A stretch of 24,000 nucleotides of DNA. It comes from an uncultured Solirubrobacterales bacterium. Its GTDB lineage: Bacteria > Actinomycetota > Thermoleophilia > Solirubrobacterales > 70-9. The stretch lies in assembly GCA_963709375.1 (NCBI GenBank), contig CAVPWA010000009.1:35980-59979 (forward strand), given 5' to 3'. A model generated the notes under the pieces. The model made no database searches. It saw only the letters and a program-made list of their open reading frames with translations, and was not told where the DNA came from. Positions 1,106 to 21,629 of the stretch are shown piece after piece. Every line of letters starts with the position of its first letter. Position 1 is the stretch's first letter. A program made the translations under genes and the position numbers.

Positions 1106-2278
1106 GTGCCTGAGCAAGACGCCCCGCCCGAGTCCCTCGCCTCTCTGGTCGCCCGATTCGATCCGGATGTGATCGAGATCCCGAGCGGTAGCGCGAGGAT
1201 CCGCCTCGGCGTGGAAGGCGAGCCCGAATGGGATGCGGTGATCACCAGCCATGGCGCGGACCTCTTCCCGGCCGGCGAGGAGGACTTCGACGCCGAGTTG
1301 ATCGCCGACGAGAAGACATGGAAGAGGATCGCCGAAGACATCGGTTTCGGTATGGCCGCATTCAGCGACAGTGCGCTCAAGGTCCGGCGCAACCTTCACC
1401 TCGGCGTCGGATTTCTCGCAGCAACCAGCGGAATCGTCGACCCCGGCCGGATGGAGTTCGGGTCGGTCGAGACCGGGCAGGGTCGGGTCTCGACCCTCTC
1501 GGCGGGCCAGGGCGAGACGGTTGTATGCATCCACGGACTCGGAGGCACCAAGGCATCCTTCCTGACTACGATCGCCGCGCTTTCCGGCAGTTACCGGGTG
1601 ATCGCGATGGACCTGCCGGGCTTCGGCGATTCAGAGAAACCCCTCGGCGCCGCCTACGACGCTCCCTACTTCGCTGAATCGGTGGTCGGGCTGCTGGACC
1701 AACTCGCGATAAAGAAAGCGCATCTGGTCGGCAACAGCATGGGGGGACGGGTTGCGATCGAGGTCGGGCTGCTGCATCCGGACCGGGTACGGAGCCTTGT
1801 TCTGCTGGCGCCGGCGTTGGCCTGGCTGCGCGACCGCCGCTGGCGCTGGCTGCTGCGCGGTCCGCTGCCGAAGCTGGGGCTGGTTCAGCCGGCTCCCAGG
1901 GTGATCACCGAACCACTCGTCCGCGGACTCGTTCCCGGAGGACGCAAGGGGTGGACGGCGGCCGGGGTGGACGAGTTCCTGCGCTCCTTCCTGACTCCGC
2001 GTGGTCGGGTCGCCTTCTACGAATCGGCCAAGAACATCTACCTCGACGAGCCCCACGGTGAAGAAGGGCTGTGGACGCGCATGGAGCGCCTCCTCCCGCC
2101 TTCGCTCTTCGTATGGGGCGAGCAGGACACGCTGGTGCCGATCGGCTTCGAGAAGCATGTGGAACGGGTTCTTCCCCAGGCTGAGCACCTCGAACTCGAC
2201 TGCGGGCACGTGCCCCAGATGGAAATGGCGGACGCGACTCACGAAGCGATGAGGGAATTTCTCGGCCGCCTAGGGTGA
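1106..2278 (+). CDS. SCP2 (sterol-carrier-like) N-terminal domain fused to an alpha/beta-fold hydrolase
   Basis: 390-aa ORF with a GTG start. The N-terminal ~105 aa has an SCP2-like pattern (ARIRLGVEGEPEWDAVI...AELIADEKTWKRIAEDIGFGMAAFSDSALKVRRNLHLGVGF). It is followed by HGLGG (oxyanion region), the nucleophile elbow GNSMGG, and a C-terminal DCGHVPQME catalytic His region. Confidence 0.85.
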   Translation: MPEQDAPPESLASLVARFDPDVIEIPSGSARIRLGVEGEPEWDAVITSHGADLFPAGEEDFDAELIADEKTWKRIAEDIGFGMAAFSDSALKVRRNLHLGVGFLAATSGIVDPGRMEFGSVETGQGRVSTLSAGQGETVVCIHGLGGTKASFLTTIAALSGSYRVIAMDLPGFGDSEKPLGAAYDAPYFAESVVGLLDQLAIKKAHLVGNSMGGRVAIEVGLLHPDRVRSLVLLAPALAWLRDRRWRWLLRGPLPKLGLVQPAPRVITEPLVRGLVPGGRKGWTAAGVDEFLRSFLTPRGRVAFYESAKNIYLDEPHGEEGLWTRMERLLPPSLFVWGEQDTLVPIGFEKHVERVLPQAEHLELDCGHVPQMEMADATHEAMREFLGRLG

Positions 2279-3525
2279 ACTGCTGGACACAGCCGGCGCA
2301 CGCGCTGATCCGCAAGCGCTGGGTGGTCGGCACAGCCAAAGACGTTCGCTCACCGGTCGGAGGCCCGCCGATCCAGCGACCCGAGGCCCACATTGACACC
2401 CCGGCCAACGGTGGTCTCTACGCCCCGACCAAGGTGCCCGACCTCGACTTCCACTGCCGCGACCTCGACGGCCCGGCAACCGTGGCAAGCTGCACTGCGA
2501 CCGTGGACGGAAACCCGGCTCTCGACGGCGCGGCCCTGCCGGACAGCCCGGGCGCCCACACCGTAATCGTGACCGCCGTCGACACCGACGGGCTCACCCG
2601 CAGCCACAGTCACACCTACACAGTCAAGACTTTCGCCGACATCTTCAACTCGGACTCCCCGATCGCCTACTACCGCCTCGGTGAGGCCGCCGGGTCTGCG
2701 GCCATGACTGATTCTTCGGGCAACCACCGGGACGGCACCTACAAGAACGACCAGGAGTCGGGCCCGGTTGGCATCTCCGGTGACGGCGACCACGCCAGGC
2801 GCTTCATCGGCTCCGGCGGTTACGGCTATGTGAACGCCGTTGCCGCGCCGCGTTTCCAGAGCACCCTGGAGGCCTGGGTCAACCCCGAAGACCACCGCGA
2901 CCAGTCGGTACTCGGTCACGGCGAAGCCGGCGAGATCTACATCGAAGGCGGCCTGATCAAGTTCCGCCATATGGGCACCACCGTCGCTGCAAGCACCGGT
3001 CCTGCGCCCGGTCGATTCACGCAGGTCGTCGCGGTCTGGGACGGAGTCACGATCTCGCTCTACGTGGACGGCAGGCTGCGCGGCCAGACGGAGGCGACCA
3101 AGCGTCCGAGTTCGATCTCTACCTTCTACGTCGGCTACGGCGAGATCAAGCCCTGGTTCAAGGGTTCGATCGACGAGGTCGCCTACTACGACCGCGCACT
3201 GACACCCGGCCGCGTGCTCGAGCACTTCCTGGCTGACCCGCCGCCGGAAGGCGACGATGCGGTCGCAAGCGGCACGAACCCCGGCGAGCCGCAGCAGGTA
3301 ACCGCCGACCCGGTGGGCGATCCCGGATCCTTCAAGTACGAGCAGAGCGGTTCGTCCGCCGGCTCGAAGCCCGATACGGCCTCCGGACCAGACCGCGCTG
3401 CGGCCCGCAAGGCCAAGACCCGCAGGGCCAAGGTCCGCCGGGCGAAAGCCCGCAAGGCCAAGGTGCGCAAGTGCCGCGCCCTCGATCGCAAGAAGGCCCG
3501 TCGGGCCTGCCTGCGCCGCATCTGA
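2275..3525 (+). CDS. LamG / concanavalin-A-like lectin domain protein with an N-terminal Ig-like segment and a polybasic Cys-bracketed C-terminal tail; the start is uncertain and no signal peptide is visible
   Basis: 416-aa ORF. LamG (Laminin_G_3-type) signatures: IAYYRLGE, DSSGNHRDGTY, LEAWVNP, ISLYVDGRL, GSIDEVAYYDRALT. The tail is AAARKAKTRRAKVRRAKARKAKVRKCRALDRKKARRACLRRI. The GTG at 2275 overlaps the hydrolase stop (GTGA). The N-terminus VNCWTQPAHALIRKRW has no hydrophobic core. Confidence 0.7.
   Translation: MNCWTQPAHALIRKRWVVGTAKDVRSPVGGPPIQRPEAHIDTPANGGLYAPTKVPDLDFHCRDLDGPATVASCTATVDGNPALDGAALPDSPGAHTVIVTAVDTDGLTRSHSHTYTVKTFADIFNSDSPIAYYRLGEAAGSAAMTDSSGNHRDGTYKNDQESGPVGISGDGDHARRFIGSGGYGYVNAVAAPRFQSTLEAWVNPEDHRDQSVLGHGEAGEIYIEGGLIKFRHMGTTVAASTGPAPGRFTQVVAVWDGVTISLYVDGRLRGQTEATKRPSSISTFYVGYGEIKPWFKGSIDEVAYYDRALTPGRVLEHFLADPPPEGDDAVASGTNPGEPQQVTADPVGDPGSFKYEQSGSSAGSKPDTASGPDRAAARKAKTRRAKVRRAKARKAKVRKCRALDRKKARRACLRRI
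3403..3462 (+). repeat. 15-nt direct repeat gcccgcaaggccaag (3403-3417 and 3448-3462), one 45-nt (15-aa) period inside the polybasic tail of the LamG protein
   Basis: Read directly. The two copies are identical and the intervening codons repeat the A-K/R pattern (ARKAKTRRAKVRRAK / ARKAKVRKCRALDRK). Confidence 0.8.
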
Positions 3526-3555
3526 GCAGTAGACACCCCGGGCAGCTCCGCCTGA

Positions 3556-3894
3556 TCGAAACCGGCGCCGGCCCAGCTTCGAGGCTGGTCGCTAGCGCGC
3601 AGGCGGGCGGCCCGTGGGTGGCCACGGACGCGCACGCGGACACTCGCTGGTCGAGTCACGCTGCGATCGCGGCCGGGTCGCCGGGAGGCCCGGCTGGTGG
3701 CGAAGGCACCTGACCTCGACGAGCTTCTCCGGCTCGGGTTCGAGCAGGTGCGGATCGCCGCTGCGACGCATCCGACCGTCTCGCAGCGCATGCTCGACCT
3801 GCTCGACGTGATCGATGGAGCGGCCACCAGGGCCGGGATCGAGAGCTCCGAGGTCGTTCGTCAGCGTCGGCTGATCGAACCGAACGCAGGGTGA
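3556..3894 (+). pseudogene. C-terminal remnant of a DUF2254-family membrane protein; only the last ~80-110 aa are present, with no N-terminal TM region
   Basis: The frame is open from the stop at 3553-3555. Translation ...GRVTLRSRPGRREARLVAKAPDLDELLRLGFEQVRIAAATHPTVSQRMLDLLDVIDGAA... aligns by eye with the C-terminus of the full-length DUF2254 gene in this window (8747-10033): GSLRLVFPTPSWEDFLSIGLDETRLFGADSIQITRRMRALLEDLLDSVP. Shared positions are P, L, G, R, A, RM and LL. The track ORF 3697-3894 (GTG start) is the best-preserved part. Confidence 0.4.
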
Positions 3895-3933
3895 GCAGGA
3901 AGCCGGCCGTGGGCGCTGGCCTCCCCGGGAGGC

Positions 3934-4167
3934 TCAGCGCCGGGGAGGAGGCGGCGCCCGACGCTCGTCGGAGGTGCCGCCGCCGGTGCGGTCGTTGCGG
4001 TTGATCATCGCCACCGTGAACGAGAGCACAAGGATCAAGGCGCCGGCGATCATCAGGATCAGGCCGACCGTGTCCATGTCGACCCCGGAAACCGTGAAGT
4101 TGGTCGCGTAGCGCAGGATCGCGCCGACCGCGATCAGGAAGATTGGTCCTCCGAAAGAGATGTACAT
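3934..4167 (-). CDS. Small 2-TM membrane protein (DUF6458-like)
   Basis: 77-aa ORF with two hydrophobic helices (PIFLIAVGAILRYA, VGLILMIAGALILVLSFTVAMI) and a basic, Pro-rich tail. It lies 21 nt downstream of the FMN-reductase gene on the same strand. Confidence 0.75.
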   Translation of the reverse strand: MYISFGGPIFLIAVGAILRYATNFTVSGVDMDTVGLILMIAGALILVLSFTVAMINRNDRTGGGTSDERRAPPPPRR

Positions 4168-4188
4168 GGCGTCAGCCTACCGTCGGGG

Positions 4189-4908
4189 TCAGCGGTACTC
4201 GGGGTTCTCGAAACCGAAGCGTTCGCCCTGGTCCCATTCGGTCCGTTGGTTGCCGCCGACCGGAAAGCCGCCGGCGTCGCGCAGCAGCCTTGCCGCATGG
4301 AGCAGGTTCCAGGTCATGAAGGTCGTATTGCGGTTGGTGAAGTCGTTGTCGGGCCCGCCCGAGCCTTCGTCCAGGTAACTCGGACCGGGTCCGGCTTCCC
4401 CGAGCCAGGCCGCGTCTGCCTGCGGCGGGATCGTGTACCCGAGGTGCTGAAGCGAGTAGAGGACGTTCATGGCGCAGTGCTTGGCGCCGTCCTCGTTGCC
4501 GGTGACCAGGCATCCGCCGACCCGGCCGTAGTAGGCGTACTGGCCGCTTTCGTTCAGTTCGCTACTGCTCCCGTAGAGCCGTTCGATCACGCGGGTGCAG
4601 ACCGAGGACTTCTCGCCGAGCCAGATCGGGGTCAGGAGCACCAGGACGTCGGCGGCCATCACCTTCTCCTGGATCGCCGGCCATTCGTCGCTTTCCGCAC
4701 CGTGTTCGCGCATGTCGGGGTAGACCCCGGCCGCGATGTCGTGGTCGACGGCCCGGATCGTCTCAACCTCGACTCCGAGCTTTTCCATGATCGCTATCGA
4801 GATGTCCGCCAGCCCCTGGGTATGCGAAAGCGCCGGTGACGGCTTCAGGGTGCAGTTGATGAAGAGGGCTTTGAGCCCCGAGAAGTCCTGATCTGTTTCG
4901 ACTGGCAT
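4189..4908 (-). CDS. Flavodoxin-like NAD(P)H-dependent FMN reductase / oxidoreductase
   Basis: The ORF is open to 4980, but the probable start is the ATG at 4908 (MPVETDQDFSGLKALFINCTLKPSP...). The family hallmark is present: INCTLKPSPALSHT, then WPAIQEKVMAADVLVLLTPIWLGEKSSVCTRVIERL, then VTGNEDGAKH. Confidence 0.85.
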   Translation of the reverse strand: MPVETDQDFSGLKALFINCTLKPSPALSHTQGLADISIAIMEKLGVEVETIRAVDHDIAAGVYPDMREHGAESDEWPAIQEKVMAADVLVLLTPIWLGEKSSVCTRVIERLYGSSSELNESGQYAYYGRVGGCLVTGNEDGAKHCAMNVLYSLQHLGYTIPPQADAAWLGEAGPGPSYLDEGSGGPDNDFTNRNTTFMTWNLLHAARLLRDAGGFPVGGNQRTEWDQGERFGFENPEYR

Positions 4909-4989: not shown

Positions 4990-5685
4990 ATGGGAACCAT
5001 GCGCAGGGGAATCACGATCATGATGCTGTCTGCCGCGACGCTGACGCTCTGGGCGTCAGCGCCGGCCTTCGCAGCCGACACGATCAGGGCCGAGGTGGAC
5101 TGCTGCACCTTCGAAGCCGGGCCGTACTTCCAGGACCTGGGTGAAGTACCGACCTTCGAAAACCCGCCCATGGCCAATCCCCACAACGTGACCTCGACGG
5201 TTTCCGGCCCGGACGGAGATGCGCTCTTCCGTTCCCGGACGATCGGCGCGGCTGACTCGACTCCGGTCAAGGGCACTCAGTACCTCGGGGCCGGCACCTA
5301 CCCCTTCTTCTGCACTCTCCACGGGGCTTCGATGAGCGGCGAGCTGGTCGTACAGGGAGACAAAGGCCAGGTGGCCGCGAGACCGTCGATCAAGGTTTCG
5401 ATCCCGCGCCAGCGGCTGAAGAAAGTCCGCAAGTCACGAAAGCTGAAGGTCAAGGTCAGGGCTTCGACGCCGAGTCCGGGCATCCGTATCGCTGTCAGGC
5501 GAGGCAAGAAGCAGATCGCATCCTCTTCGAAGATCAGCCTCGGGGCGGGCGCCGCCCGTGTCCTCAAGCTCAAGCTCACCGGCAAGGGTCGCAAGGCGAT
5601 ATCGAAGGGCAGCAAGGTCGCTGTCTCGGCGACCGGCACCGTTGACTTCGGCAAGTCGTCTCGGGCGAAACGCAGCCTTCGCTGA
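4990..5685 (+). CDS. Secreted type-1 (blue) copper protein: cupredoxin domain plus a Lys/Arg-rich beta-rich C-terminal extension
   Basis: Signal peptide MGTMRRGITIMMLSAATLTLWASAPAFA|AD. T1Cu ligand pattern: His in ANPHNVTS (5182-5184), then C-x2-H-x3-M in GTYPFFCTLHGASMSG (Cys 5311, His 5320, Met 5332). C-terminal ~100 aa: KVSIPRQRLKKVRKSRKLKVKVRAS...LKLKLTGKGRKAISKGSKVAVSATG. Confidence 0.85.
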   Translation: MGTMRRGITIMMLSAATLTLWASAPAFAADTIRAEVDCCTFEAGPYFQDLGEVPTFENPPMANPHNVTSTVSGPDGDALFRSRTIGAADSTPVKGTQYLGAGTYPFFCTLHGASMSGELVVQGDKGQVAARPSIKVSIPRQRLKKVRKSRKLKVKVRASTPSPGIRIAVRRGKKQIASSSKISLGAGAARVLKLKLTGKGRKAISKGSKVAVSATGTVDFGKSSRAKRSLR

Positions 5686-5881
5686 AGTTTTCGGCGGCGG
5701 AAGCCTTCCCTTGCGGTAGATTCTGTTGAGGCGGTCACGGCGGAGGGCTGCCAGGAGCGAACTTGGGAGCGTGAATGGCCTTCAGGGTTGAGTCTGTACG
5801 TGACGGTGGCATCGGCCGTGTTTCGGTCGTCCGGCATCGGGCTGGCGCTGGCAAGCCCTTCTCCTGCTCACGCTCGCTCCG

Positions 5882-7501
5882 GTGTCGAAGGCGGTCGTCC
5901 CTCCGCAGACCGAAATCCTCCCCAACGGGGTCGAGCGCATCACCTACTACGTCGGCGAAAACGGCGGGCCGCTGCAGGTGACCTCGGGACAGAACCGGAT
6001 CGACTACGACCCGATCTTCGGCCTTCAGAAGCCCTCCCGGAACGGCTGGATCACCAGGATCGAACCCAACCTGGTCAGGCCGGACGGCTCGATTCCGAAG
6101 TCGAGCAAGGTCATGTTCCACCACGGCGTCTGGCTCAATGCGAGCCGCGACGACGCCACTGACGATTCGGTCGGCGCATTCTTCCCGGAGCGCTTCTATG
6201 CCACCGGTGAAGAAAAGACCGCAATGGAGTTGCCGCCCGGATTCGGCTATCGCTACGAGAAGACCGACCTCTGGATCCTCAACCACATGGTGCACAACCT
6301 CGTGGTCGAGCCGATGGAGCTCTACATCACTTATACGATCGACTTCATTCCCGATGGTTCACCGCTGGCCGAAGGCATCGAGCCGGTGCGGCCGATCTGG
6401 ATGGACGTCGAGAACGGCACCGAGTACCCGGTCTTCGACGTAAAGCGCGGAAGCGGCGGCAAGGACGGAGAGTTCACCTACCCGGCCGACGCCGGCAACC
6501 CATACGGAAGCGGCCCGAAGGAGAACGAGTGGGTCGTCGACCGGGACGGGGTCCTGGTGCAGACGATCGGCCACGTCCACACCGGCGGCCTCTCGACCGA
6601 GCTCTACCTCAACCGTGACGGCGCCAAGTACTCCGGCCCCAGGTGCAAGAAGCTGAAGAAGCTGAAGCAGGCGCAGAAGAAGAACTGGAGCAAGAAGCGC
6701 AAGCGTGCCTTCAGGAAGAAGCAGAAGCGGATCCGCGCCTGCCGGTCGAAGCAGCCGAACGTAAAGGGCGACCGGGTCGAGCTGTTCACTTCCCAGGCCA
6801 GGTACTTCGGCAACCGCCGGCCCGTCTCCTGGGACGTGGCGATGGTTGGCACCAGGCCGAACTGGCGGGTGGCGGTCAAGGCCGGCGATACCCTCGAGCT
6901 TCAGACGACCTACGAGACCAAGATCGCTTCCTGGTACGAGTCGATGGGCATCAACGTCCTGTACATGGCCGATGCCGATGTTGCCGGCAAGGATCCGTAT
7001 TCGAAGAAGGTCAGCTACCGGGGAGTGCTCAACCACGGCCACTTCGAGGAGAACAACGACCACGGCGGCAAGGGTCCCGTAGTCGGGCCGGATCCCCGCA
7101 GGCTGCCGGACGGCATGCCGCAGTCGCAGCCGCTGATGATCGGCGGATACACATACGAAGCCGGTGACTTCCGCATACCCGGCGCGGTCGGCCGCCCGCC
7201 GGTCGTCGAGCGCGGAGAGCAGCTCACCTTCCAGCTCTCCGCCGGAGACCAGTCGAACCAGATCTGGCATTCGCTGACCTCCTGCAAGGCACCCTGTAAC
7301 AGGTCCACCGGGATCTCCTACCCGATCCCGGACGGCGAGTTCCAGTTCGACTCGGGCCAGCTCGGGCTGGGGCCGGCGCCGACCGTGAACCGCGATGAGT
7401 GGTCCACGCCGAAGAACATGCCGGTCGGGACCCACACCTTCTTCTGCCGTATCCACCCGCTGATGCGCGGGGCAGTCAGGGTCGTGAAGCCTGACCAGTA
7501 G
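5882..7501 (+). CDS. Two-domain copper monooxygenase-like protein (PHM/DBH, 'copper type II ascorbate-dependent monooxygenase' fold) fused to a C-terminal type-1 cupredoxin domain; carries a 33-aa Cys-bracketed polybasic insertion
   Basis: 539-aa ORF with a GTG start. Motifs are in PHM order and roughly PHM spacing. CuH-like: VMFHHGVW (His 6119, 6122), then FYATGEEKTAMELPPGFGYRYEKTDLWILNHMVHN (compare PHM LYAWA...RLPKGVGFRVG...VLQVHYG). CuM-like: IGHVHTGG (His 6572, 6578; compare PHM VHTHHLG), then VKAGDTLELQTTYET...WYESMGINVLYM (Met 6944; compare GDILAARCVF...SDEMCNLYIMYY). C-terminal cupredoxin: WHSLTS (His 7268) and THTFFCRIHPLM (Cys 7445, His 7454, Met 7463), the same spacing as the amicyanin C-x2-H-x2-M loop. 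Confidence 0.75.
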   Translation: MSKAVVPPQTEILPNGVERITYYVGENGGPLQVTSGQNRIDYDPIFGLQKPSRNGWITRIEPNLVRPDGSIPKSSKVMFHHGVWLNASRDDATDDSVGAFFPERFYATGEEKTAMELPPGFGYRYEKTDLWILNHMVHNLVVEPMELYITYTIDFIPDGSPLAEGIEPVRPIWMDVENGTEYPVFDVKRGSGGKDGEFTYPADAGNPYGSGPKENEWVVDRDGVLVQTIGHVHTGGLSTELYLNRDGAKYSGPRCKKLKKLKQAQKKNWSKKRKRAFRKKQKRIRACRSKQPNVKGDRVELFTSQARYFGNRRPVSWDVAMVGTRPNWRVAVKAGDTLELQTTYETKIASWYESMGINVLYMADADVAGKDPYSKKVSYRGVLNHGHFEENNDHGGKGPVVGPDPRRLPDGMPQSQPLMIGGYTYEAGDFRIPGAVGRPPVVERGEQLTFQLSAGDQSNQIWHSLTSCKAPCNRSTGISYPIPDGEFQFDSGQLGLGPAPTVNRDEWSTPKNMPVGTHTFFCRIHPLMRGAVRVVKPDQ

Positions 7502-7540: not shown

Positions 7541-7565
7541 TCCTGAATGGATTTCAGTTTCAGGA
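7541..7565. promoter_or_regulatory. Inverted repeat tcctgaa-N11-ttcagga (with a nested ctgaa-N5-ttcag) in the AT-richer intergenic region upstream of the COG4315 gene pair; possible operator
   Basis: Read directly: 7541-7547 tcctgaa and 7559-7565 ttcagga. It lies 27 nt upstream of the proposed GTG start at 7592, in a 90-nt gap that is visibly less GC-rich than the flanks (ttaggtttgattaatcgacact...). Confidence 0.3.
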
Positions 7566-7591
7566 TTGAGTGTGTCCGTGGGAGCAGCCTC

Positions 7592-8107
7592 GTGAAGCGC
7601 CTCGCGCTCGCGGCTGCCTCAGCCGCCCTGCTGGTGGGTGGCGTCGCTGCCTCGCCGATCTCGGCCTCGCCTGGATCCGGCACCGCGTCTTCGTCGGGTG
7701 CCGCGCAGGTCTCGGTCGACAAGCGGTTCAAAGCGAAGAAGAACATCCGCATTGCCGCCTACAACTCGCCCTACGGCAAGATGCTCTACAACAAGCAGCG
7801 TCAGGCGATTTACATCTTTGAGAAGGAAAAGAACAAGAAGAGCCGCTGCTACGGAGCCTGCGCCGAGGGTTGGCCACCGGTTCTCACCAAGGGCAAGAAG
7901 AAGGGCAAGCCCAAGGGAATCAAGGGTGTCAAGCAGAAGCTGCTCGGCACGACAAAGCGCCGGGGCGGGGCCAGGCAGGTCACTTACAACGGCAAGCCGC
8001 TCTATTACTACTACGACGAGCTTCCCGGCCAGGTCTTCTGCCACAACGTCATCCAGTACGGCGCCAACTGGGCCGTGATCCGCCCGAGTGGTCGGATCGC
8101 GGACTGA
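7592..8107 (+). CDS. Secreted COG4315 / PF03640-type protein (Yx[FWY]xxD 'secreted repeat' family), strongly basic paralog
   Basis: The track ORF starts at 7547, but GTG 7592 has a GGAG at 7581-7584 (7-nt spacing) and opens directly into a signal peptide, VKRLALAAASAALLVGGVAASPISA. Family core: IYIFEKEKNKKSRCYGACAEGWPPVL...LLGTTKRRGGARQVTYNGKPLYYYYDE...CHNV...WAVIRPSG. Confidence 0.8.
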   Translation: MKRLALAAASAALLVGGVAASPISASPGSGTASSSGAAQVSVDKRFKAKKNIRIAAYNSPYGKMLYNKQRQAIYIFEKEKNKKSRCYGACAEGWPPVLTKGKKKGKPKGIKGVKQKLLGTTKRRGGARQVTYNGKPLYYYYDELPGQVFCHNVIQYGANWAVIRPSGRIAD

Positions 8108-8703
8108 TGGGCAGTCCGGCCGGTGGATCGGCGGTCCTGAAGCCGACGCTGCTGGCTGTGCCGCTCGTTGCCATCGCACTTGCTTTCGCAGCATGCGGCG
8201 GGAACGATGAGTCGTCGCAGCCGGCCGAACAGGCCGCGCCGGCCGCCGAGGCCGCCCAGTCCGGCGATTCGAGTACGGCCGGCGATTCGAGTACGGCCGG
8301 CAACGACCAGGCCGGCAGTGGCAACGGAGGAGAAGCCGGGGCCGCCTCCGGCACGACGATCAGCACCGGCGATTCGCAGTTCGGCGAAGTCCTCTTCGAT
8401 GGCGACCAGGGGGCGATCTACTACTTCGACAAGGAAAAGACCTCCGAGAGCGAGTGCTACGGCGACTGCGCCGTGGCCTGGCCACCGGTGCTGACCGACG
8501 GCGAGCCGCGGTCGGGCGGGGGTGCGCAGAACCAGCTTCTCGGCACCACCGAGCGCCGGGACGGCAGCACGCAGGTCACCTATGACGGCAGGCCGCTCTA
8601 TTACTACGTGGATGACCCGCCCGGTGTGGTTCTCTGCCACAACGTCGCCGAGTTCGGCGGACTCTGGCTCGCAGTCCAGCCGGACGGCGCAGCGGTTTCC
8701 TGA
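8107..8703 (+). CDS. COG4315 / PF03640-type lipoprotein, strongly acidic paralog
   Basis: ATG 8107 overlaps the upstream TGA by 1 nt (TGATG). Lipoprotein signal with lipobox: MGSPAGGSAVLKPTLLAVPLVAIALAFAAC|GGN. Core: IYYFDKEKTSESECYGDCAVAWPPVL...LLGTTERRDGSTQVTYDGRPLYYYVDD...CHNV...WLAVQPDG. It is colinear with the upstream paralog. Confidence 0.85.
   Translation: MGSPAGGSAVLKPTLLAVPLVAIALAFAACGGNDESSQPAEQAAPAAEAAQSGDSSTAGDSSTAGNDQAGSGNGGEAGAASGTTISTGDSQFGEVLFDGDQGAIYYFDKEKTSESECYGDCAVAWPPVLTDGEPRSGGGAQNQLLGTTERRDGSTQVTYDGRPLYYYVDDPPGVVLCHNVAEFGGLWLAVQPDGAAVS
8263..8298 (+). repeat. Perfect 2 x 18-bp in-frame tandem duplication (ggcgattcgagtacggcc), encoding GDSSTA-GDSSTA in the lipoprotein linker
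   Basis: Read directly: 8263-8280 is identical to 8281-8298. Confidence 0.95.
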
Positions 8704-10635: not shown

Positions 10636-10714
10636 CTGGATCCCCTTCGTCGCTGTGTACCTGACCATAGGTGAGTGTATACGGAGTTTCTGGTCGTTTC
10701 CCGGGATCGGTGGC

Positions 10715-10736
10715 CCCGGCCGGCCATCCGGCCGGG
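10715..10736. promoter_or_regulatory. Perfect 9-bp G/C stem with a 4-nt loop (cccggccgg-ccat-ccggccggg) in the divergent intergenic region, 46 nt upstream of the heliorhodopsin ATG
   Basis: Read directly: 10715-10723 is the exact reverse complement of 10728-10736. The function (operator palindrome or 5'-UTR structure) is unknown. Confidence 0.4.
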
Positions 10737-10781
10737 AGCAAAGGCCGATTTCACGAAGGCGGGCCGGGTAGTGTTCCCGAC

Positions 10782-11576
10782 ATGAGTGAAAAGACCTCAG
10801 CGGCCTCCGAGACCAGTCCCGAGCGGCAGAAGCTTTCCAGGCTGCGCCGCCTGAACCTGATCGCCACGATCTTCTTCGCGGTTCAGGTGATCGTCCTCCT
10901 GCTTATCTCGGAACCGGCGGAGTTACCGGTCATCGGCTCGTTTCTGACCGACGCGCCGGGCAGCGGCCAGTACGGGTCCAAGGTCCTCTTCGACCTCAGG
11001 ATCGACATCCTGGTCGCGCTATTCCTCGCCCTGGCTGCGGTGGACCATTTCGCGGTCGGCACCTTCGCCCGCAGCTGGTACGAGAAGAACGTGAGCCGCG
11101 GCATCAACCCGGCGCGCTGGTGGGAATACTCGATCAGCGCCTCGATCATGGTGGTGCTGATCGCCATGCTGGCCGGCGCGAGCGACGCGGTCGCGCTCTT
11201 CGCGATCTTCGGCGTCAACGCCTCGATGATCTTCTTCGGCCTGGTCATGGAGAAGGCCAATCTCGGACGCGAAGAGGTCAACTGGTCTCCTTTCATTTTC
11301 GGATGCGTAGCGGGAGCCGTGCCGTGGATCGCGATCGTGATCCAGCTCGCGCTGGCGCAGTCCGAAGGCGACGGCGTCCCGGGATTCGTCTACGGGATCT
11401 TCGTTTCACTGTTCATCCTCTTCAACGGCTTCGCGGTGAACATGTGGCTCGGCTACCGGGCCAACGGCCGGTGGAAGGACCCGCTCTTCGTCGAGAAGGC
11501 GTACATCGTGCTGAGTCTCGTCGCGAAGACGGTTCTGGCGTGGCAGGTCTACCAGGGCGCTCTCGCCGGATCCTGA
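10782..11576 (+). CDS. Heliorhodopsin (HeR), a 7-TM retinal protein
   Basis: The track ORF starts at 10671, but the ATG at 10782 gives a 264-aa protein colinear with the prototype HeR 48C12: ARWWEYSISASIMVVLIA (vs FRWVEYSLSSSVMIVLIA), AIFGVNASMIFFG (identical core), FGCVAGAVPWI, VPGFVYGIFVSLF, KAYIVLSLVAKTVLAWQVY (vs RAYIVLSLVAKSALAWQIF). The Schiff-base Lys codon is at 11526-11528 and the counterion Glu codon at 11124-11126. Confidence 0.92.
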   Translation: MSEKTSAASETSPERQKLSRLRRLNLIATIFFAVQVIVLLLISEPAELPVIGSFLTDAPGSGQYGSKVLFDLRIDILVALFLALAAVDHFAVGTFARSWYEKNVSRGINPARWWEYSISASIMVVLIAMLAGASDAVALFAIFGVNASMIFFGLVMEKANLGREEVNWSPFIFGCVAGAVPWIAIVIQLALAQSEGDGVPGFVYGIFVSLFILFNGFAVNMWLGYRANGRWKDPLFVEKAYIVLSLVAKTVLAWQVYQGALAGS

Positions 11577-11580
11577 CTTC

Positions 11581-13110
11581 GTGGGTGGCACGACCGCCTG
11601 GGTCCTGGGCGACCAACTCTCGAGGTCGAACCCGGCGCTCAAGGGAGCCGACCGGGTGCTCATGGTCGAATCGCTGGCCGTGGTGGGCAGGCGGGCCTAT
11701 CACCGTCAGAAGCTCCACCTCGTCTGGGCGGCGATGCGGCGCTTCCGCGACGAACTTACCCGGGACGGCTTCGAGGTCGACTACCGCAGCGCGCCTTCGA
11801 TGGCCGCGGGCTTTCGTGATCACCTGTCGGATCACGACCCCGATCGCATTCTTGTGCTGGACCCCGCCAGGCTCGGCGCCGGACCACGCCTGAACGCCCT
11901 TGACCAAAGGGTCTGCGTGCTGGAAGGCGGCCTGTTCCTGACTTCGCCCGAGGACTTCAGGCAGTGGGCCTCCGGCCGCCGCCAACTTCGAATGGAGGAC
12001 TTCTATCGCCGGCAGCGCCGCCGCTTCGACCTGCTGATGGACGGAGACCAGCCTGAAGGCGGCAAGTGGAACCTCGACTCCGAGAACCGCGGCCGCCCGC
12101 CGGCCGGGCTGAAGCCGCCGCGTCCTTACCGTCCCCGCGAGGACGAGGTCGATGCCGCGGTGCGCCGCGACCTCGATCGGCTGACCGGTGAAGATGCCCC
12201 GGGCAAAGCGATAGCCGTCTCCGGTGTTGATGGCCCGCGACTCTTCCCGGCCGGGCGTGACGAGGCGCGCAGGGCACTGAGCTCGTTCTGCGAGAAACGC
12301 CTGCCGGAGTTCGGCACCTACCAGGATGCGATGCTGGCGGGGCGGCGCTTCATGTGGCATGCGCTGCTGTCCAGCTCCCTCAACCTGGGGCTGCTCGATC
12401 CTCTTGAATGTGCCCGGGCGGCCGAAGCCGAGTATCGCGCCGGACGCGCGCCACTCAACTCGGTGGAGGGTTTCATCCGACAGGTAATCGGCTGGCGCGA
12501 GTACGTCTGGGGGATCTATCGCCTGCGGGGTAGCGAACTCGCGGGCGAGAACGCACTCGGGGCGGAGGGCCGCCTGCCGGCCGTCCTCGACCGACTCGAA
12601 CCCGGGCTGACTGACATGGCCTGCGTTGCCGACGTGGTCGACGGAGTCCGCGAGACGGCCTACGCCCACCACATCGAGCGCCTGATGCTGCTCGGCAACC
12701 TGATGCTGCTCGCCGGCACTTCTCCCTCCCGCTCCAACGAATGGTTCCACCGCTCCTTCATCGATGGCTACGAGTGGGTGATGCTGCCGAACGTTTCGGG
12801 CATGGCGCTCTGGGCCGACGGTGGCCGGATGATGTCGAAGCCGTACGCCGCTTCCGGTCGCTACATCGATCGAATGTCCGATCATTGCGCCGGCTGCCGC
12901 TACAGCCCGACCAGCCGCTCGGGTGAGCAGGCCTGCCCGTTCACGGTGCTCTACTGGGATTTCCTCGATCGCAACAGGCAGGCGCTGGCGGGCAATCACC
13001 GCATGGCAATGGTCCTGGCCAACCTTGACCGGATCGGGACGGAGGAGCTGTCAGGCATCCGGAAGAACGCCTCCGCCATCCGCGATGGACTGGAGGGCGG
13101 CAACACCTGA
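11581..13110 (+). CDS. Cryptochrome/photolyase family protein of the Fe-S cluster type (FeS-BCP; COG3046 'photolyase-related'; PhrB/CryB-like, probable (6-4) photolyase)
   Basis: 509-aa ORF. The GTG lies 4 nt after the HeR stop. The N-terminus AWVLGDQLS...LMVES...RRAYHRQKLHLVWAAMRRF is typical of COG3046. Four Cys are spaced C-x87-C-x2-C-x12-C (MACVADVV ... SDHCAGCRYSPTSRSGEQACPF), the same spacing as the [4Fe-4S] ligands C350/C438/C441/C454 of Agrobacterium PhrB. HHIERLM and GYEWVMLPNV motifs are present. Confidence 0.9.
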   Translation: MGGTTAWVLGDQLSRSNPALKGADRVLMVESLAVVGRRAYHRQKLHLVWAAMRRFRDELTRDGFEVDYRSAPSMAAGFRDHLSDHDPDRILVLDPARLGAGPRLNALDQRVCVLEGGLFLTSPEDFRQWASGRRQLRMEDFYRRQRRRFDLLMDGDQPEGGKWNLDSENRGRPPAGLKPPRPYRPREDEVDAAVRRDLDRLTGEDAPGKAIAVSGVDGPRLFPAGRDEARRALSSFCEKRLPEFGTYQDAMLAGRRFMWHALLSSSLNLGLLDPLECARAAEAEYRAGRAPLNSVEGFIRQVIGWREYVWGIYRLRGSELAGENALGAEGRLPAVLDRLEPGLTDMACVADVVDGVRETAYAHHIERLMLLGNLMLLAGTSPSRSNEWFHRSFIDGYEWVMLPNVSGMALWADGGRMMSKPYAASGRYIDRMSDHCAGCRYSPTSRSGEQACPFTVLYWDFLDRNRQALAGNHRMAMVLANLDRIGTEELSGIRKNASAIRDGLEGGNT

Positions 13111-17131: not shown

Positions 17132-17701
17132 ATGTCACTCGTCGAATCAAGGATGATGCCGCTCGGATCTGCCGCCCCGGAATTCAGCCTGCCTGATCCC
17201 GACGGGGTGAGTCACTCGCTGGGCGATGCGGCGCAGGCCGGAGCGGTTGTCGTCGCCTTCATCTGCAACCACTGCCCTTATGTGAAGCACATCGCCACCG
17301 CCCTGGCCCGGGTCTCGGATGAGCTGATCGCCGAAGGGGCGGCCGTATTCGCGATCAATTCGAACGACAGCGTCGCGTATCCGGACGACTCTCCCGAACG
17401 CATGGCCGAGGAAGTCGAAAGGCGGGGCTACCGCTTCCCCTACCTGGTCGACGCCGACCAGTCGGTGGCAAGGGCCTACGGGGCGGTGTGCACACCGGAC
17501 CTCTTCGTATTCGACGGTGAGCGCCGCCTCGCCTATCGCGGGCAGTTCGACCCGAGCCGGCCGAACGGAGGTTCCCCGGCCACCGGTGAGGATCTCGCCG
17601 CGGCGGTGAGGGCAGTGCTGACCGGAGCCTCCGTACCGGAACCACAGATCCCTTCGGTCGGGTGTTCGATCAAGTGGTCATCCGGCGACCCGGCACCCTG
17701 A
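17132..17701 (+). CDS. Thioredoxin-fold (AhpC/TSA / redoxin-like) thiol-disulfide oxidoreductase
   Basis: 189 aa. GSAAPEFSLPDPDGV...VVAFICNHCPYVKH (CxxC) ...CTPDLFVFD. Confidence 0.85.
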   Translation: MSLVESRMMPLGSAAPEFSLPDPDGVSHSLGDAAQAGAVVVAFICNHCPYVKHIATALARVSDELIAEGAAVFAINSNDSVAYPDDSPERMAEEVERRGYRFPYLVDADQSVARAYGAVCTPDLFVFDGERRLAYRGQFDPSRPNGGSPATGEDLAAAVRAVLTGASVPEPQIPSVGCSIKWSSGDPAP

Positions 17702-17797
17702 AGCCAGGACAGGCCGGTCCACACGGGGGATTGCCGCGATAGATCGTGAAGCCCGTTGCCGAGGTGCCGACAGGGCGGAACCGTCAACATTCAGTCA

Positions 17798-19558
17798 ATG
17801 CTCCTGCTGATCCTCTTCGGATTCGTCGCCGGTGCCGCGACGGCGGTATCGCCCTGCATCCTGCCGGTGCTGCCCGTAGCCCTGGCGGCCGGCGCGACCG
17901 GTGGCCACCGCAGGCCGATCGGAATCGTCGCCGGCCTGGCCGTCTCTTTCACCTTCGCGATCGTGGTGCTTGTCTACCTGCTGGATGCCCTCGGCCTGCC
18001 CGACGAGCTGATGCGAAACCTGGCGATCGCCGTGCTGCTCGGTTTCGGCCTGACGCTGCTGGTGCCGGCCGTTTCGAGCCGGGCCGAAGGCCTGATCAGC
18101 CGGATTACCAGCCGCTTCCAGCCGAAGACAGGCAGCGGCGACGGCTTCTGGTCCGGCACTCTGATCGGCGCCAGCCTCGGTCTCGTCTACGCGCCCTGTG
18201 CCGGTCCGATCCTGGCCGGAGTCATCACCGTCTCCGCCTCGCAGCCGTTCACCGCCGGGCGCCTGGCGGTGGCGCTGGCCTACGGGATCGGCTCCGCTTT
18301 GGTGCTTTACCTGCTGATGATCGGCGGACGCAGACTCATCAGGCCGCTCGGCCGCCAGACGCCGAGGCTGCAGGCGGCGATGGGCGCGGTGATGGTCGTC
18401 TTCGCGCTGGTCATGGCCGGGGACTACGACCTCAGGTTCCAGAACGAGATCGCCGACAACCTGCCTGCCGTGGTGGTCAACCCGACCAGGTCGCTCGAGT
18501 CGACCGCCGCGGCGCAAGACGCATTGGCCGAGGTCAGGGGTGGGCCGGCGAGCCCGGAGGCACGGCGGATCGCCGAAGGCCTCGATCGGGCAGACGAGGA
18601 TGGGCAGGGCCCGGACTCCGGCCTGCCCGTGATCGCTCCGGCTCCGGACTTCGTCGGCAACCAGCGATGGTTCAACACCCCCGGTGGTGCGCCCCTGACC
18701 ATGTCGTCGCTGAGGGGGCGCGTTGTGCTGGTCGATTTCTGGACCTACAGCTGCATCAACTGCATCCGCACCCAGCCTTACCTCAAGGCCTGGGACGAGC
18801 GCTACCGCGACCGCGGGCTTACCATCGTCGGGGTCCATTCGCCCGAGTTCCCGTTCGAGAAGGACGCGGGCAACGTCGAGCAAGCGATCGAGAGGGCCGG
18901 GATCGGGTACCCGGTGGCGCAGGACAACGATTTCCAGACCTGGAACGCCTATGCGAACCAGTACTGGCCGGCGGAGTACTTCATCGACGCCGAGGGCCGG
19001 GTCCGCTACGCCCATTTCGGCGAGGGTGAATACGAAGAGAAGGAGCAGGTGATCCGCGACCTGCTCGCCGAAGCCGGCCGCAGGCCGGGGGAAGGGACCT
19101 CAGACGCCGACGGCGACAGCATCTCGAACGGCGTCACGACGCCGGAGAGCTACCTCGGCTCGGCCCGGGCCGACCGCTTCACCAACGGCCTGATCCTTTC
19201 CGGGGTCCGGAACTTCGGTCGCCTGGAGGAGCCGGGACCGGACGAGCTCTCCTACGGTGGTCGTTGGAACATCGATCCGGATTTCGCTGTCGCCCAAGGC
19301 GGCAGGCTGAGCCTGCGTTTCGAGGCCAAGCGGGTCTTTCTCGTTCTCGGTTCACCTGGCGGGCCGCGTCGGGTGAAGGTCCTGCTCGACGGTTTGCCGA
19401 TCCGGCAGGGCGATGCCGGCCGGGACGTCTTGCGATCGAGTGTGACCGTCGATCGCGAACGCCTCTACGAGCTTGTCGACCTGCCGCAGGTCGGCAGCCA
19501 TACGCTCACCCTGATCCCCGAGGGAGGGGTCAGGGCCTACGCCTTCACCTTCGGCTGA
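17798..19558 (+). CDS. dipZ: DipZ-type cytochrome c biogenesis / thiol-reductant transfer protein: CcdA(DsbD) membrane domain, thioredoxin domain and C-terminal DipZ beta domain
   Basis: The track ORF starts at 17756, but the ATG at 17798 opens MLLLILFGFVAGAATAVSPCILPVLP (CcdA first Cys). The second TM Cys is in LVYAPCAGPILAG. Periplasmic Trx motif: VLVDFWTYSCINCIRTQPYL...VHSPEFPFE...YWPAEYFIDAEG. The C-terminal ~170 aa match the mycobacterial DipZ layout. Confidence 0.9.
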   Translation: MLLLILFGFVAGAATAVSPCILPVLPVALAAGATGGHRRPIGIVAGLAVSFTFAIVVLVYLLDALGLPDELMRNLAIAVLLGFGLTLLVPAVSSRAEGLISRITSRFQPKTGSGDGFWSGTLIGASLGLVYAPCAGPILAGVITVSASQPFTAGRLAVALAYGIGSALVLYLLMIGGRRLIRPLGRQTPRLQAAMGAVMVVFALVMAGDYDLRFQNEIADNLPAVVVNPTRSLESTAAAQDALAEVRGGPASPEARRIAEGLDRADEDGQGPDSGLPVIAPAPDFVGNQRWFNTPGGAPLTMSSLRGRVVLVDFWTYSCINCIRTQPYLKAWDERYRDRGLTIVGVHSPEFPFEKDAGNVEQAIERAGIGYPVAQDNDFQTWNAYANQYWPAEYFIDAEGRVRYAHFGEGEYEEKEQVIRDLLAEAGRRPGEGTSDADGDSISNGVTTPESYLGSARADRFTNGLILSGVRNFGRLEEPGPDELSYGGRWNIDPDFAVAQGGRLSLRFEAKRVFLVLGSPGGPRRVKVLLDGLPIRQGDAGRDVLRSSVTVDRERLYELVDLPQVGSHTLTLIPEGGVRAYAFTFG

Positions 19559-20027: not shown

Positions 20028-21629
20028 TTGAGCGCCCTGCTGATCGCCGCAGTTGTCCTGCCGGGCATCGCGGTCATTTTCGGAGTGGCGGCAGGGGCAC
20101 AACGGCACCAGGCCGTAGCCCGCATCGGAGTGGCGCTGAACCTCGCCTCGCTGGCCCTCGCTTTCGCCGTCTTCATTTCAGTCTGGGCAGACTCTCCGGC
20201 AGCCGCGGTCATCGAGAACGGATCCGGCGAAGCCGTACTGGGTCTGGTCGCCGACCGGGTCACCTCGGTCCTGCTGCTTCTGGTTCTCGGTGTCAGCGCC
20301 GTGGTCCAGGCCTTCGCCGGCCGCTACCTCGGCGGCGACGTGCGTGCCGGACGATTCTTCAACGGGGCAAACCTGCTCACCTTCTCGACCGCCCTGATGG
20401 TCACTTCGGTCACCTTCATCGGGCTGGCGATCGCCTGGACCGTCGCCGGTATCTCGGTGGTCCTGCTGCTCGCCATGTACAGCGGTTTCGAGGCCGCCAG
20501 GGAAGGGGTCCGGCGGGCGGTCCGGATCTTCGTGATCGGAGACGTCGCGATCTGGGCAGCCGTCATCCTTGCCACCATCGAGTGGGGATCGCTGGACCTG
20601 CGCACGCTCGGCCAGTCGGGACCCGAACTGGCCGGCGCCTCGATGCTCGTTCCGGTGGCCTGCCTGCTGGTCGTGGCCGCGATGGCCCGCTCGGCCCAGT
20701 TGCCGCTTCAGAGCTGGCTGCCGGCCACGCTCGCCGTGCCCACACCGGTCTCGGCTCTGCTCCACGCAGGGGTCGTGAACGCCGGCGGCATCCTGCTGGT
20801 CAGGCTGAGCCCGGTCTTCGGTGCATCGTCCGAGGCCACCCATCTCGCTTTCTTCGCCGGGGCCGCGACAACCGTCTACGGCACCGCCCTGATGCTCTCC
20901 AAGACCGACGTAAAGGGCGCACTGGCCCACTCGACGATGGGTCAGATGGGCTTCATGATCATGACCTGCGGACTCGGCGCCTACGCCGCGGCAGTCTTCC
21001 ACCTGTTCGCCCACGGCATGTACAAAGCGACCCTCTTCCTCGGCTCGGGGGCGGCTGTCCACAGTAAGGTGCGCCACGCCAAGGCCCCGCCGGTCGGGAC
21101 GGCTACTCCTGCCGCGAAGGCATTCTCGATCGCCCTTGCGGCCGCGGTTCCCGCCGCCGTTCTGCTCATCTTCGCCGAGCTGCTCTACCCGGACCGTTCC
21201 TCCGGTGCCAACGCCCTGCTGCTATTTGCCTGGGCCACCGGAGCCTGGATCCTGTACGGCTGGGGCAGGCGCCACGCCTCGGTCGTCGGCGCCCTCTCGG
21301 GCGCCGGGCTGGTCACGCTCGCGGCCGGGGCCTATGTCCTGCTGCTGAGCTCGGTCAGCGAGTTCATGGCACCTGCCCTCGCCGGAGCGGGGGAGGCGGT
21401 CGTCTCGCCCTGGTGGGTTGCCGGACTGTTCGTCCTGATGGCGCTGGCCGGGCTCACCGCGCTCGCCGGACCCGGCGGGCGAATCGCTGAAATCCGAAAG
21501 ACCATCTACGTTCTGGCGCTCGGGGCCGGCCAGGTGAGCGAGCGGCGCAGGCGCCCGGTCCGCTCCGAAAGGCCGGTTCCGGCCGGCTCCGGAGGCCTGA
21601 TGCCGGAATCCCAGGGAGCGAGCTCGTGA
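20028..21629 (+). CDS. dabB: DabB: proton-conducting membrane subunit (NuoL/MrpA, PF00361-type) of a DAB inorganic-carbon uptake complex
   Basis: 533-aa polytopic protein. TTG start with GGAGG 6 nt upstream. Conserved PF00361 core: ARSAQLPLQSWLPATLAVPTPVSALLHAGVVNAGGILLVRL and KGALAHSTMGQMGFMIMTCGLGAYAAAVFHLFAHGMYKATLFLGSG. The identity as DabB rests on the 4-nt overlap (GTGA) with the DUF2309/dabA gene. Confidence 0.85.
   Translation: MSALLIAAVVLPGIAVIFGVAAGAQRHQAVARIGVALNLASLALAFAVFISVWADSPAAAVIENGSGEAVLGLVADRVTSVLLLLVLGVSAVVQAFAGRYLGGDVRAGRFFNGANLLTFSTALMVTSVTFIGLAIAWTVAGISVVLLLAMYSGFEAAREGVRRAVRIFVIGDVAIWAAVILATIEWGSLDLRTLGQSGPELAGASMLVPVACLLVVAAMARSAQLPLQSWLPATLAVPTPVSALLHAGVVNAGGILLVRLSPVFGASSEATHLAFFAGAATTVYGTALMLSKTDVKGALAHSTMGQMGFMIMTCGLGAYAAAVFHLFAHGMYKATLFLGSGAAVHSKVRHAKAPPVGTATPAAKAFSIALAAAVPAAVLLIFAELLYPDRSSGANALLLFAWATGAWILYGWGRRHASVVGALSGAGLVTLAAGAYVLLLSSVSEFMAPALAGAGEAVVSPWWVAGLFVLMALAGLTALAGPGGRIAEIRKTIYVLALGAGQVSERRRRPVRSERPVPAGSGGLMPESQGASS

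Follow-up and report, generated by a model that had tools for sequence, protein, structure and literature searches.

A predicted PHM/DBH-fold protein with a fused amicyanin-type cupredoxin domain in Solirubrobacterales

The window analysed here is a stretch of 24,000 nucleotides of contig CAVPWA010000009.1, from an uncultured Solirubrobacterales bacterium, with a G+C content of ~65% and with its nearest relatives among Solirubrobacterales contigs of metagenome-assembled genomes (MAGs). One of its open reading frames (ORFs) encodes a protein, here called the fusion protein, that is predicted to join a pair of jelly-roll domains like those of peptidylglycine alpha-hydroxylating monooxygenase (PHM) and dopamine beta-hydroxylase (DBH) to a C-terminal cupredoxin domain. 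We propose, with a probability of about 0.6, that the fusion protein works outside the cytoplasm as an oxidoreductase with three coppers, and that its reaction is most likely an O2-dependent monooxygenation, for which the electrons would come via proteins and not from ascorbate. The fold match, the conservation of the candidate ligands, the domain architecture, the linkage to a neighbouring gene and the distribution of the family were resolved in this analysis, and are presented in turn.

Candidate copper ligands and predicted fold

The fusion protein contains the motifs VMFHHGVW (residues 77-84), LPPGFGYRY (117-125), ILNHMVHN (132-139), GHVHTGG (230-236), GDTLELQTTYET (335-346), WYESMGINVLYM (351-362), WHSLTS (462-467) and FFCRIHPLM (520-528). 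An earlier note, made from the sequence of this DNA, had claimed that such motifs hold the six copper ligands of PHM and a complete type-1 copper site. All the motifs that it quoted are present, with six PHM-type candidate ligands in the PHM order (H80, H81, H138, H231, H233 and M355) and a complete type-1 motif at the C-terminus, for which H463, C522, H525 and M528 are the candidate ligands. In the first jelly-roll subdomain the adjacent HH pair is followed by a third His ~60 residues on, as in the CuH site of PHM at motif level, and in the second an HxH is followed by a downstream Met, as in the CuM site; M355 is equated with PHM M314 by motif alone (ESMGINVLYM versus DEMCNLYIMYY).

Conservation of these residues among orthologues, which the earlier note had set as a check, speaks for the assignment. 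All ten candidate ligands are invariant in the 35 orthologues of our first alignment (A1), and in a wider set of 80 diverse representatives, with identities down to ~35%, they are conserved at ~81-100%: 91-100% for the PHM-type positions and 81-91% for the type-1 ligands (Table 1). The motif pattern exceeds what would be expected by chance, because the window protein has few His residues overall (12), and the five PHM-type His are kept in 94-100% of the representatives while H135, H387, H394 and H518 vary, being conserved in merely 35-56%. Close to the proposed sites, M136 is conserved in 100% of the sequences and position 78 is a His in 44 and a Met in 28, and D318 and M321 are conserved in subdomain II; the PHM model would not have predicted the conservation of these residues, nor that of H385 in the linker described below.

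A model built with AlphaFold2 (AF2) from alignment A1 has a predicted local distance difference test score (pLDDT) of 83.4 and a predicted template modelling (TM) score (pTM) of 0.84, with low confidence solely for residues 390-440 and the termini. When this model was compared with the PDB using Foldseek, the best 17 matches were all to PHM (1yjk, 3mlk, 1phm and others) or to human DBH (4zel), with E-values from 3e-8 to 5e-6 and a probability of 1.0, which is the structural match that had likewise been named beforehand as a check. The next matches, with E-values from 3.6e-4 to 6e-4, were to NirK and to a multicopper oxidase with a C-terminal cupredoxin (6hbe, 9cck, 6tfo), followed by GH172 (best E 9.8e-4) and by the double jelly-rolls of viral capsids (~1e-3 or weaker); PNGase F was not among the top 50, and all further matches had E > 1e-3. 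The GH172 and capsid matches are consistent with the known kinship of these families, since PHM, PNGase F, DUF2961/GH172 and viral capsid proteins have a common double jelly-roll fold (PMC8812541). The N-terminal ~365 residues of the fusion protein are predicted to adopt the two-jelly-roll fold of PHM and DBH. In the model, DSSP places the HH pair at the start of strand 77-90 and H138 at the end of strand 131-139; H231 ends strand 223-232, with H233 just beyond it, and M355 stands just ahead of strand 356-364. Set against the 1SDW sequence and the known structure of PHM, each ligand is taken to occupy the corresponding end of the equivalent strand.

The Lys/Arg-rich insert of subdomain II is 33 residues long, with 18 K/R, no D/E and an isoelectric point (pI) of 11.9, and is predicted to form a helical hairpin (DSSP helices 263-267 and 271-288); its length ranges from 0 to ~100 residues across homologues. 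The linker that follows the core carries a His-rich motif, G-x-LNHGH(F/Y)xENxDHGG, at 7022..7069 (residues ~381-396), in which H385 is 93% conserved. The motif might bind a fourth metal, serve in copper loading or act as a bridge for electron transfer.

In the case of the C-terminal domain, the family profile matched PDB amicyanin with an E-value of 0.011, the segment GThtffCriHPlMRG being aligned with GTYDYHCTPHPFMRG in the ligand loop, and Foldseek matched the domain to amicyanin with E 3.6e-3 or worse, a probability of 1.0 and TMt of 0.60-0.66. A C468/C472 pair is also conserved in this domain. The cupredoxin Pfam models, to which the earlier note had turned for a test, gave no PF00127 or PF13473 match for the window fusion protein, and sub-threshold Cupredoxin_1 matches were found in 4/35 homologues. 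Its aligned ligand loop and its modelled fold identify the domain as a cupredoxin of the amicyanin type, in which the H...C-x2-H-x2-M site is complete.

Sequence relationships and extent of the family

At the sequence level the relationship to PHM is much less apparent. The Pfam families PF01082 and PF03712, on which the earlier note had also relied as a check, were matched neither by the full protein nor by 34 homologues at E <= 1, and true PHMs in the same database all carry both. More generally, no significant match was found for the window protein in Pfam and NCBIfam; a DMFA2_C match (E 5e-4, 2/35 members) was judged spurious. Profile-profile comparisons were performed with hhalign, using an 80-sequence profile of the family and a 109-sequence profile of PHM, with the rat PHM core sequence taken from the PDB. 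Alignment A1 gave no hhalign match to rat PHM, and the local alignment of the whole protein between the two profiles was collinear but insignificant, with a probability of ~1%. When the subdomains were compared separately, subdomain I matched PHM domain I with an E-value of 5.5e-4 (probability 30%), the cross-domain controls giving 0.022 and 0.86; in this alignment LPPGFGYRY is placed with LPKGVGFRV and H138 with PHM H172, and in that of subdomain II the H231/H233 pair (GHVH) falls on PHM H242/H244.

Several results weigh against a PHM-like monooxygenase. The Foldseek TM score is modest, ~0.5 when normalised to PHM, as would be expected from the insertions, the extra domain and possibly a different angle between the subdomains, and the root-mean-square deviation (rmsd) is 8-10 A. 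Neither the insert-free N-terminal core nor the family consensus matched PF01082 or PF03712 at E <= 10, searches of PDB sequences with phmmer and with the family profile returned nothing for the N-terminal domain, and the 80- and 109-sequence profiles gave no global match over the whole protein. Subdomain II matched PHM domain II with an E-value of 0.01, which is not better than the cross-domain control of 0.022, and hhalign does not pair the HH motif with PHM H107/H108, since a loop insertion shifts the two apart. The additional conserved Met and His residues (M136, H/M78, M321 and H385) suggest, from their conservation, that the sites are unlike canonical CuH and CuM, and counterparts of R240, N316 and Y318, which in PHM form the substrate-binding peptidylglycine site, are not evident. 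Furthermore, six paralogue neighbourhoods had nothing in common beyond the cupredoxin, with no neighbour that would indicate a substrate, and the export signal of the window copy is disrupted (see below).

By these sequence comparisons, homology to PHM is at best marginal, and as far as its sequence goes the fusion protein does not belong to PF01082/PF03712. The case for PHM likeness rests on the fold, the conservation of the ligands and their collinearity.

The family is large, with > 2075 clusters at 90% identity; residues 1-400 retrieve 1122 representatives at the 50% level (E <= 1e-3), and 617 at E <= 1e-10. All 203 GTDB species-genome matches belong to Solirubrobacterales, Thermoleophilaceae, Thermoleophilia or unclassified actinomycete MAGs, and at least one distant representative is from an Acidimicrobiales MAG. 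In public databases the members are annotated as 'hypothetical protein', 'plastocyanin' or 'cupredoxin domain-containing protein'. Judging from the sequences, the fusion is the defining architecture of the family and not an occasional event, because nearly all apparently full-length relatives present the full ligand pattern together with the CR[IVMQ]HPxM loop.

Paralogues are frequent, either as tandem arrays of 2-3 genes or as divergent pairs ~2.6 kb apart, and a strong paralogue expansion is seen within Thermoleophilia (L043 3001-7487; L018, L047, L054, L059 and L061; L004, L012 and L025-L030, in our numbering of related loci). In one homologue, P0265, H138 is the single PHM-type ligand left after the loss of the HH, the HxH and the Met, and the type-1 site is kept; it would represent a natural 'ligand-dead' paralogue. 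Another variation is found in P0251/P0390 (1211 aa), where in P0251 the fusion is extended by a BamB/PQQ-like beta-propeller and by another cupredoxin.

The sole Pfam family that recurrently matched the N-terminal domain is SURNod19 (PF07712), found in 15/35 homologues below threshold, with a best E-value of 1.2e-5. The window protein scored 12-13.5 bits against a gathering cut-off of 25, and the core of homologue P0093 scored 27.8 bits (E 1.4e-6), above the gathering score. These sequence matches point to the family being a distant sister branch of SURNod19, and not a clear member. The SURNod19/MtN19-like proteins of plants and fungi resemble the fusion protein in these matches to its N-terminal domain and in that both are secreted or stress-linked; in contrast, at ~400 aa they are too short to hold the ~100-aa cupredoxin domain. 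Nod19 proteins are described as having no known biochemical function (PMC9632046), and we found none for them in the searchable literature; in bean, Nod19 is a target of miR398 and is co-regulated with Cu/Zn superoxide dismutase (Cu/Zn-SOD) by copper status (PMC3882225).

Proposed electron supply and alternative readings

Directly upstream of the fusion gene lies a gene for a secreted partner protein, composed of an amicyanin-like cupredoxin with candidate ligands H65, C108, H111 and M115 in an acidic domain (pI 4.4), and of an Ig/FN3-like tail of 106 aa with 32 K/R and a pI of 12. The Pfam Copper-bind and Cupredoxin_1 matches of the partner are sub-threshold; its family profile matches PDB amicyanin with an E-value of 2.4e-9, and its AF2 model (pLDDT 90) matches amicyanin by Foldseek with TMt 0.67 and an rmsd of 2.6 A, and Ig-like domains as well. 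The partner gene is found immediately upstream and on the same strand in at least 31 of 76 GTDB loci, a lower bound as some locus flanks are short, and also in L001, L004 and L007, and fusion-gene paralogues that lack a partner sit in unrelated neighbourhoods. The partner appears to be specific to the fusion-gene system, since merely 44 clusters of homologues were found overall.

In eukaryotic PHM and DBH, ascorbate serves to re-reduce the enzyme. We infer a different route for the fusion protein, and with it copper binding and its stoichiometry, the electron path and the O2 chemistry. The catalytic core would be a double jelly-roll of the PHM/DBH fold with two mononuclear copper sites, a CuH-like site formed by H80, H81 and H138, close to which M136 and H/M78 would lie, and a CuM-like site formed by H231, H233 and M355. 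Electrons would enter through the fused amicyanin-type type-1 copper domain (H463, C522, H525, M528); in the ~40% of loci that encode the dedicated secreted cupredoxin, this locus included, that domain would receive them from the cupredoxin. The basic modules of enzyme and partner suggest envelope tethering or electrostatic docking, in which the Lys-rich hairpin and the basic Ig-like tail may tether both proteins to an anionic envelope or may allow them to dock. Export is supported by the signal peptides of the orthologues.

With PHM, DBH and tyramine beta-monooxygenase the family shares the double jelly-roll, the HH...H...HxH...M order and the LPxGxG(F/Y)R block. It differs from them in lacking membership by hidden Markov model (HMM), in an identity of ~10%, in being prokaryotic (Thermoleophilia, Acidimicrobiia) and not animal, in a longer subdomain II with its Lys-rich insert, in the extra Met/His near the CuH-like site, in the absence of a peptide-carboxylate site of the R240/N316/Y318 type, and, as proposed here, in the replacement of ascorbate, DOMON or cytochrome b561 by the fused type-1 domain and the cupredoxin partner. 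The supply of DBH-type enzymes by DOMON or cytochrome b561 is similar in providing a dedicated redox module for a copper core of the PHM fold, but uses haem instead of type-1 copper and a different fold, in a different lineage. Amicyanin from Paracoccus and Methylobacterium is the best match for both the fused domain and the partner, with ligand loops of equal length in the fused domain and amicyanin (CRIHPLM versus CTPHPFM); it is, however, a free carrier of ~105 aa that runs from methylamine dehydrogenase to cytochrome c, whereas here one copy is fused to the enzyme, and the partner differs by its C-x2-H-x3-M loop and by the basic Ig-like tail that it carries. A tethered type-1 domain as internal electron entry is also present in the three-domain NirK of Hyphomicrobium denitrificans (6tfo) and in a Nitrosopumilus multicopper oxidase (9cck), whose own catalytic domains have the cupredoxin fold and hold type-2 or trinuclear sites, and are not a PHM-type jelly-roll pair. 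The principle of a built-in cupredoxin is thus familiar from NirK and the multicopper oxidases; its pairing with a PHM-type core is not. We found no characterised or described PHM-fold protein with a fused cupredoxin in the searchable literature, in agreement with the earlier note, which knew of no characterised example of the fusion.

Among other functions that may be considered, the best placed, which we nonetheless regard as distinctly unlikely, is that of a copper redox enzyme other than a monooxygenase, in which the PHM fold is a mere scaffold and the type-1 domain feeds a NirK-like type-2 His3 site, or serves an oxidase of Cu(I), Fe(II), phenols or superoxide. The fusion of a type-1 domain to a catalytic copper domain is characteristic of NirK and the multicopper oxidases, which come next after PHM and DBH in the Foldseek comparison (6hbe, 9cck, 6tfo), but these matches are weak (E ~4e-4 or worse) and stem most plausibly from the cupredoxin domain. 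The invariant M136, the His/Met at position 78 and the His-rich linker resemble extracellular Cu(I)-handling sites, and Nod19 is tied to oxidative and copper stress (PMC3882225). Against this, a His2Met and a His3 set in PHM order are the signature of noncoupled binuclear monooxygenases, and the HxH repeats of a trinuclear cluster are absent.

The fusion protein could also be a non-catalytic copper protein, namely an extracellular store, buffer, chaperone or electron relay with His/Met sites on a jelly-roll, which would fit with the lack of conserved substrate-related neighbours, the many paralogues per genome with their tandem arrays, the richness of the conserved positions in Met and His, and the adjoining Lipoprotein_15 proteins with their CxxxC motifs. 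We consider this very improbable: the type-1 site is strictly co-conserved with the two PHM-like sites and accompanied by a dedicated partner, which argues for catalysis that needs electrons, and type-1 domains are normally not needed in copper stores. The least credible alternative, a glycan-acting domain of the PNGase F or GH172 type with structural or non-redox-metal His/Met residues, could draw on the shared fold described above, on the weaker Foldseek matches to GH172 and capsid proteins (E ~1e-3) and on a Laminin_G_3 gene close by, but PHM and DBH are ahead of GH172 by ~5 orders of magnitude in E-value with PNGase F outside the top 50, the conserved residues are exactly of copper-ligand types in PHM order, and a hydrolase would have no role for a fused type-1 copper domain.

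If the fusion protein is the three-copper monooxygenase proposed here, it would be a bacterial PHM-fold enzyme with a spectroscopically visible type-1 port and a linked donor, in which electron transfer could be triggered and followed directly. The route by which electrons arrive at, and then cross, the solvent cleft of ~11 A between CuH and CuM in PHM and DBH is still debated, and these enzymes are hard to produce, being eukaryotic, glycosylated and rich in disulfides. The proposal would also provide the first functional handle on a family of 1122 representatives (50% identity) whose catalytic part has no domain annotation, and an ascorbate-independent hydroxylase that might become a biocatalyst. 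Through the weak PF07712 link it would further supply a testable copper-monooxygenase hypothesis for the Nod19 stress proteins of plants and fungi. A wider scenario, which we put forward tentatively and with the odds somewhat against it, is that this family and the plant and fungal Nod19 proteins belong together in a large branch of PHM-like noncoupled binuclear copper monooxygenases that has so far escaped recognition. In its actinobacterial part, a chain from the free amicyanin-like cupredoxin through the fused type-1 copper and CuH to CuM would replace ascorbate, and enzyme and partner would be kept on the envelope by the Lys-rich modules; the extracellular substrate to be hydroxylated would be new for the fold.

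Integrity of the gene and its surroundings

The earlier note had taken the ORF of 539 aa at 5882..7501 for the protein. The ORF exists as claimed, but it is not complete: orthologues of 95-97% identity have ~575 aa and a signal peptide, and the window ORF is shortened at the N-terminus relative to them. Homologues range from 550 to 630 aa and start with a signal peptide, whose final AxA immediately precedes VVPPQT..., the conserved mature start. In the window, the ATG at 5775 opens MAFRVESVRDGGIGR... (MAFRVESV...), which is homologous to the leaders of the orthologues and out of frame with the ORF, and no in-frame start codon was found upstream of the GTG at 5882. The leader DNA was aligned with five related loci that all have intact leaders (L001, L008, L009, L010 and L013). 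The closest of these to the fusion gene, L008, has 97% protein and ~93% DNA identity; L001 and L009 are 95% identical to the window gene, with full synteny. Relative to L008, the leader has three indels within ~45 nt, with a net change of -1 near 5830, corresponding to one uncompensated indel and one compensated pair.

We consider it rather unlikely that the fusion gene is here a recently inactivated pseudogene that lost its leader by a real frameshift. The cluster of three indels and the missing in-frame start would favour such a lesion; on the other hand, the other 1.6 kb of the gene is free of indels and stops and, as said, retains 97% protein identity to L008. The frameshift is probably an assembly indel rather than a real lesion, since DabA, the second conserved gene of the window, is frameshifted as well, near 22690. 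The closest contigs bear 'MFD...' isolate names, and we presume them to be bins from long-read metagenomes, a kind of assembly often affected by indel errors. The split of DabA may itself reflect assembly indel errors, or may be a second real lesion.

Table 1. Positions of the features of the window discussed in the text, with the conservation of the candidate ligands among 80 representatives
Feature	Position	Strand	Remarks
Laminin_G_3 gene	2275..3525	+	416 aa
Partner cupredoxin gene	4990..5685	+	encodes the secreted protein
Ig/FN3-like tail of partner	5365..5682		residues 126-231
Signal-peptide coding remnant	5775..5881	+	from three-frame translation and DNA alignments
Fusion ORF	5882..7501	+	GTG start, 539 aa; predicted PHM-fold double jelly-roll and cupredoxin
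Subdomain I, putative equivalent of the PHM CuH domain	5906..6361	+	residues ~9-160; candidate H80, H81, H138
Candidate CuH-like ligand codons	H80 6119-6121, H81 6122-6124, H138 6293-6295		conserved in 72/73, 72/73 and 78/78
Subdomain II, putative equivalent of the PHM CuM domain	6374..6976	+	residues ~165-365; candidate H231, H233, M355
Candidate CuM-like ligand codons	H231 6572-6574, H233 6578-6580, M355 6944-6946		conserved in 75/79, 74/79 and 67/74
Lys/Arg-rich insert	6644..6742	+	residues 255-287, bracketed by C255 and C287
Linker	6977..7201	+	from core to cupredoxin; His-rich motif
Amicyanin-type cupredoxin domain (predicted)	7202..7498	+	candidate ligands H463, C522, H525, M528
Candidate type-1 ligand codons	H463 7268-7270, C522 7445-7447, H525 7454-7456, M528 7463-7465		conserved in 63/69, 63/70, 63/70 and 59/73
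Lipoprotein_15 (PF03640) repeat gene	7547..8107	+	secreted; Pfam E 3e-15; CYGxC...WPP
Second Lipoprotein_15 gene	8107..8703	+	lipobox AFAAC; ATG overlaps previous stop (TGATG)
Heliorhodopsin gene	10671..11576	+	PF18761, E 4.5e-89
Photolyase-related DPRP gene	11581..13110	+	PF04244; starts 5 nt after the heliorhodopsin gene
AhpC/TSA peroxiredoxin	17132..17701	+	
Membrane protein	17756..19558	+	DsbD-like transmembrane, thioredoxin and Thioredoxin_10 domains
DabB-like gene	20028..21629		inorganic-carbon transporter pair with DabA
DabA	21626..22873	+	other frame from 22686 to window end; CCIDxRSE motif continues in a different frame

A scan for promoters and terminators gave nothing informative. 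The two Lipoprotein_15 genes downstream of the fusion gene, each with a CYGxCAxxWPP motif, are a translationally coupled pair in this clade, and the first of them is possibly in the same operon as the fusion gene. A Lipoprotein_15 homologue adjoins the fusion gene in ~10/76 loci, on either strand, its orientation being opposite to that of the fusion gene at least in L014 and L015; no biochemical function of Lipoprotein_15 was found in the literature.

Further away, the Laminin_G_3 gene is much shorter than in the syntenic L001, where it encodes 972 aa (1855..4773), and a DUF2254/DUF6458 segment that in L001 stands between the Laminin_G_3 and FMN reductase genes is missing in the window; the change in this region may be a structural difference or further assembly damage. 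The heliorhodopsin and DPRP genes are paired in L001 as well, and may form a module for light sensing and DNA repair. Finally, at a distance of 10 kb from the copper genes, the adjacent peroxiredoxin and DsbD-like protein make up a module for extracytoplasmic thiol redox reactions.

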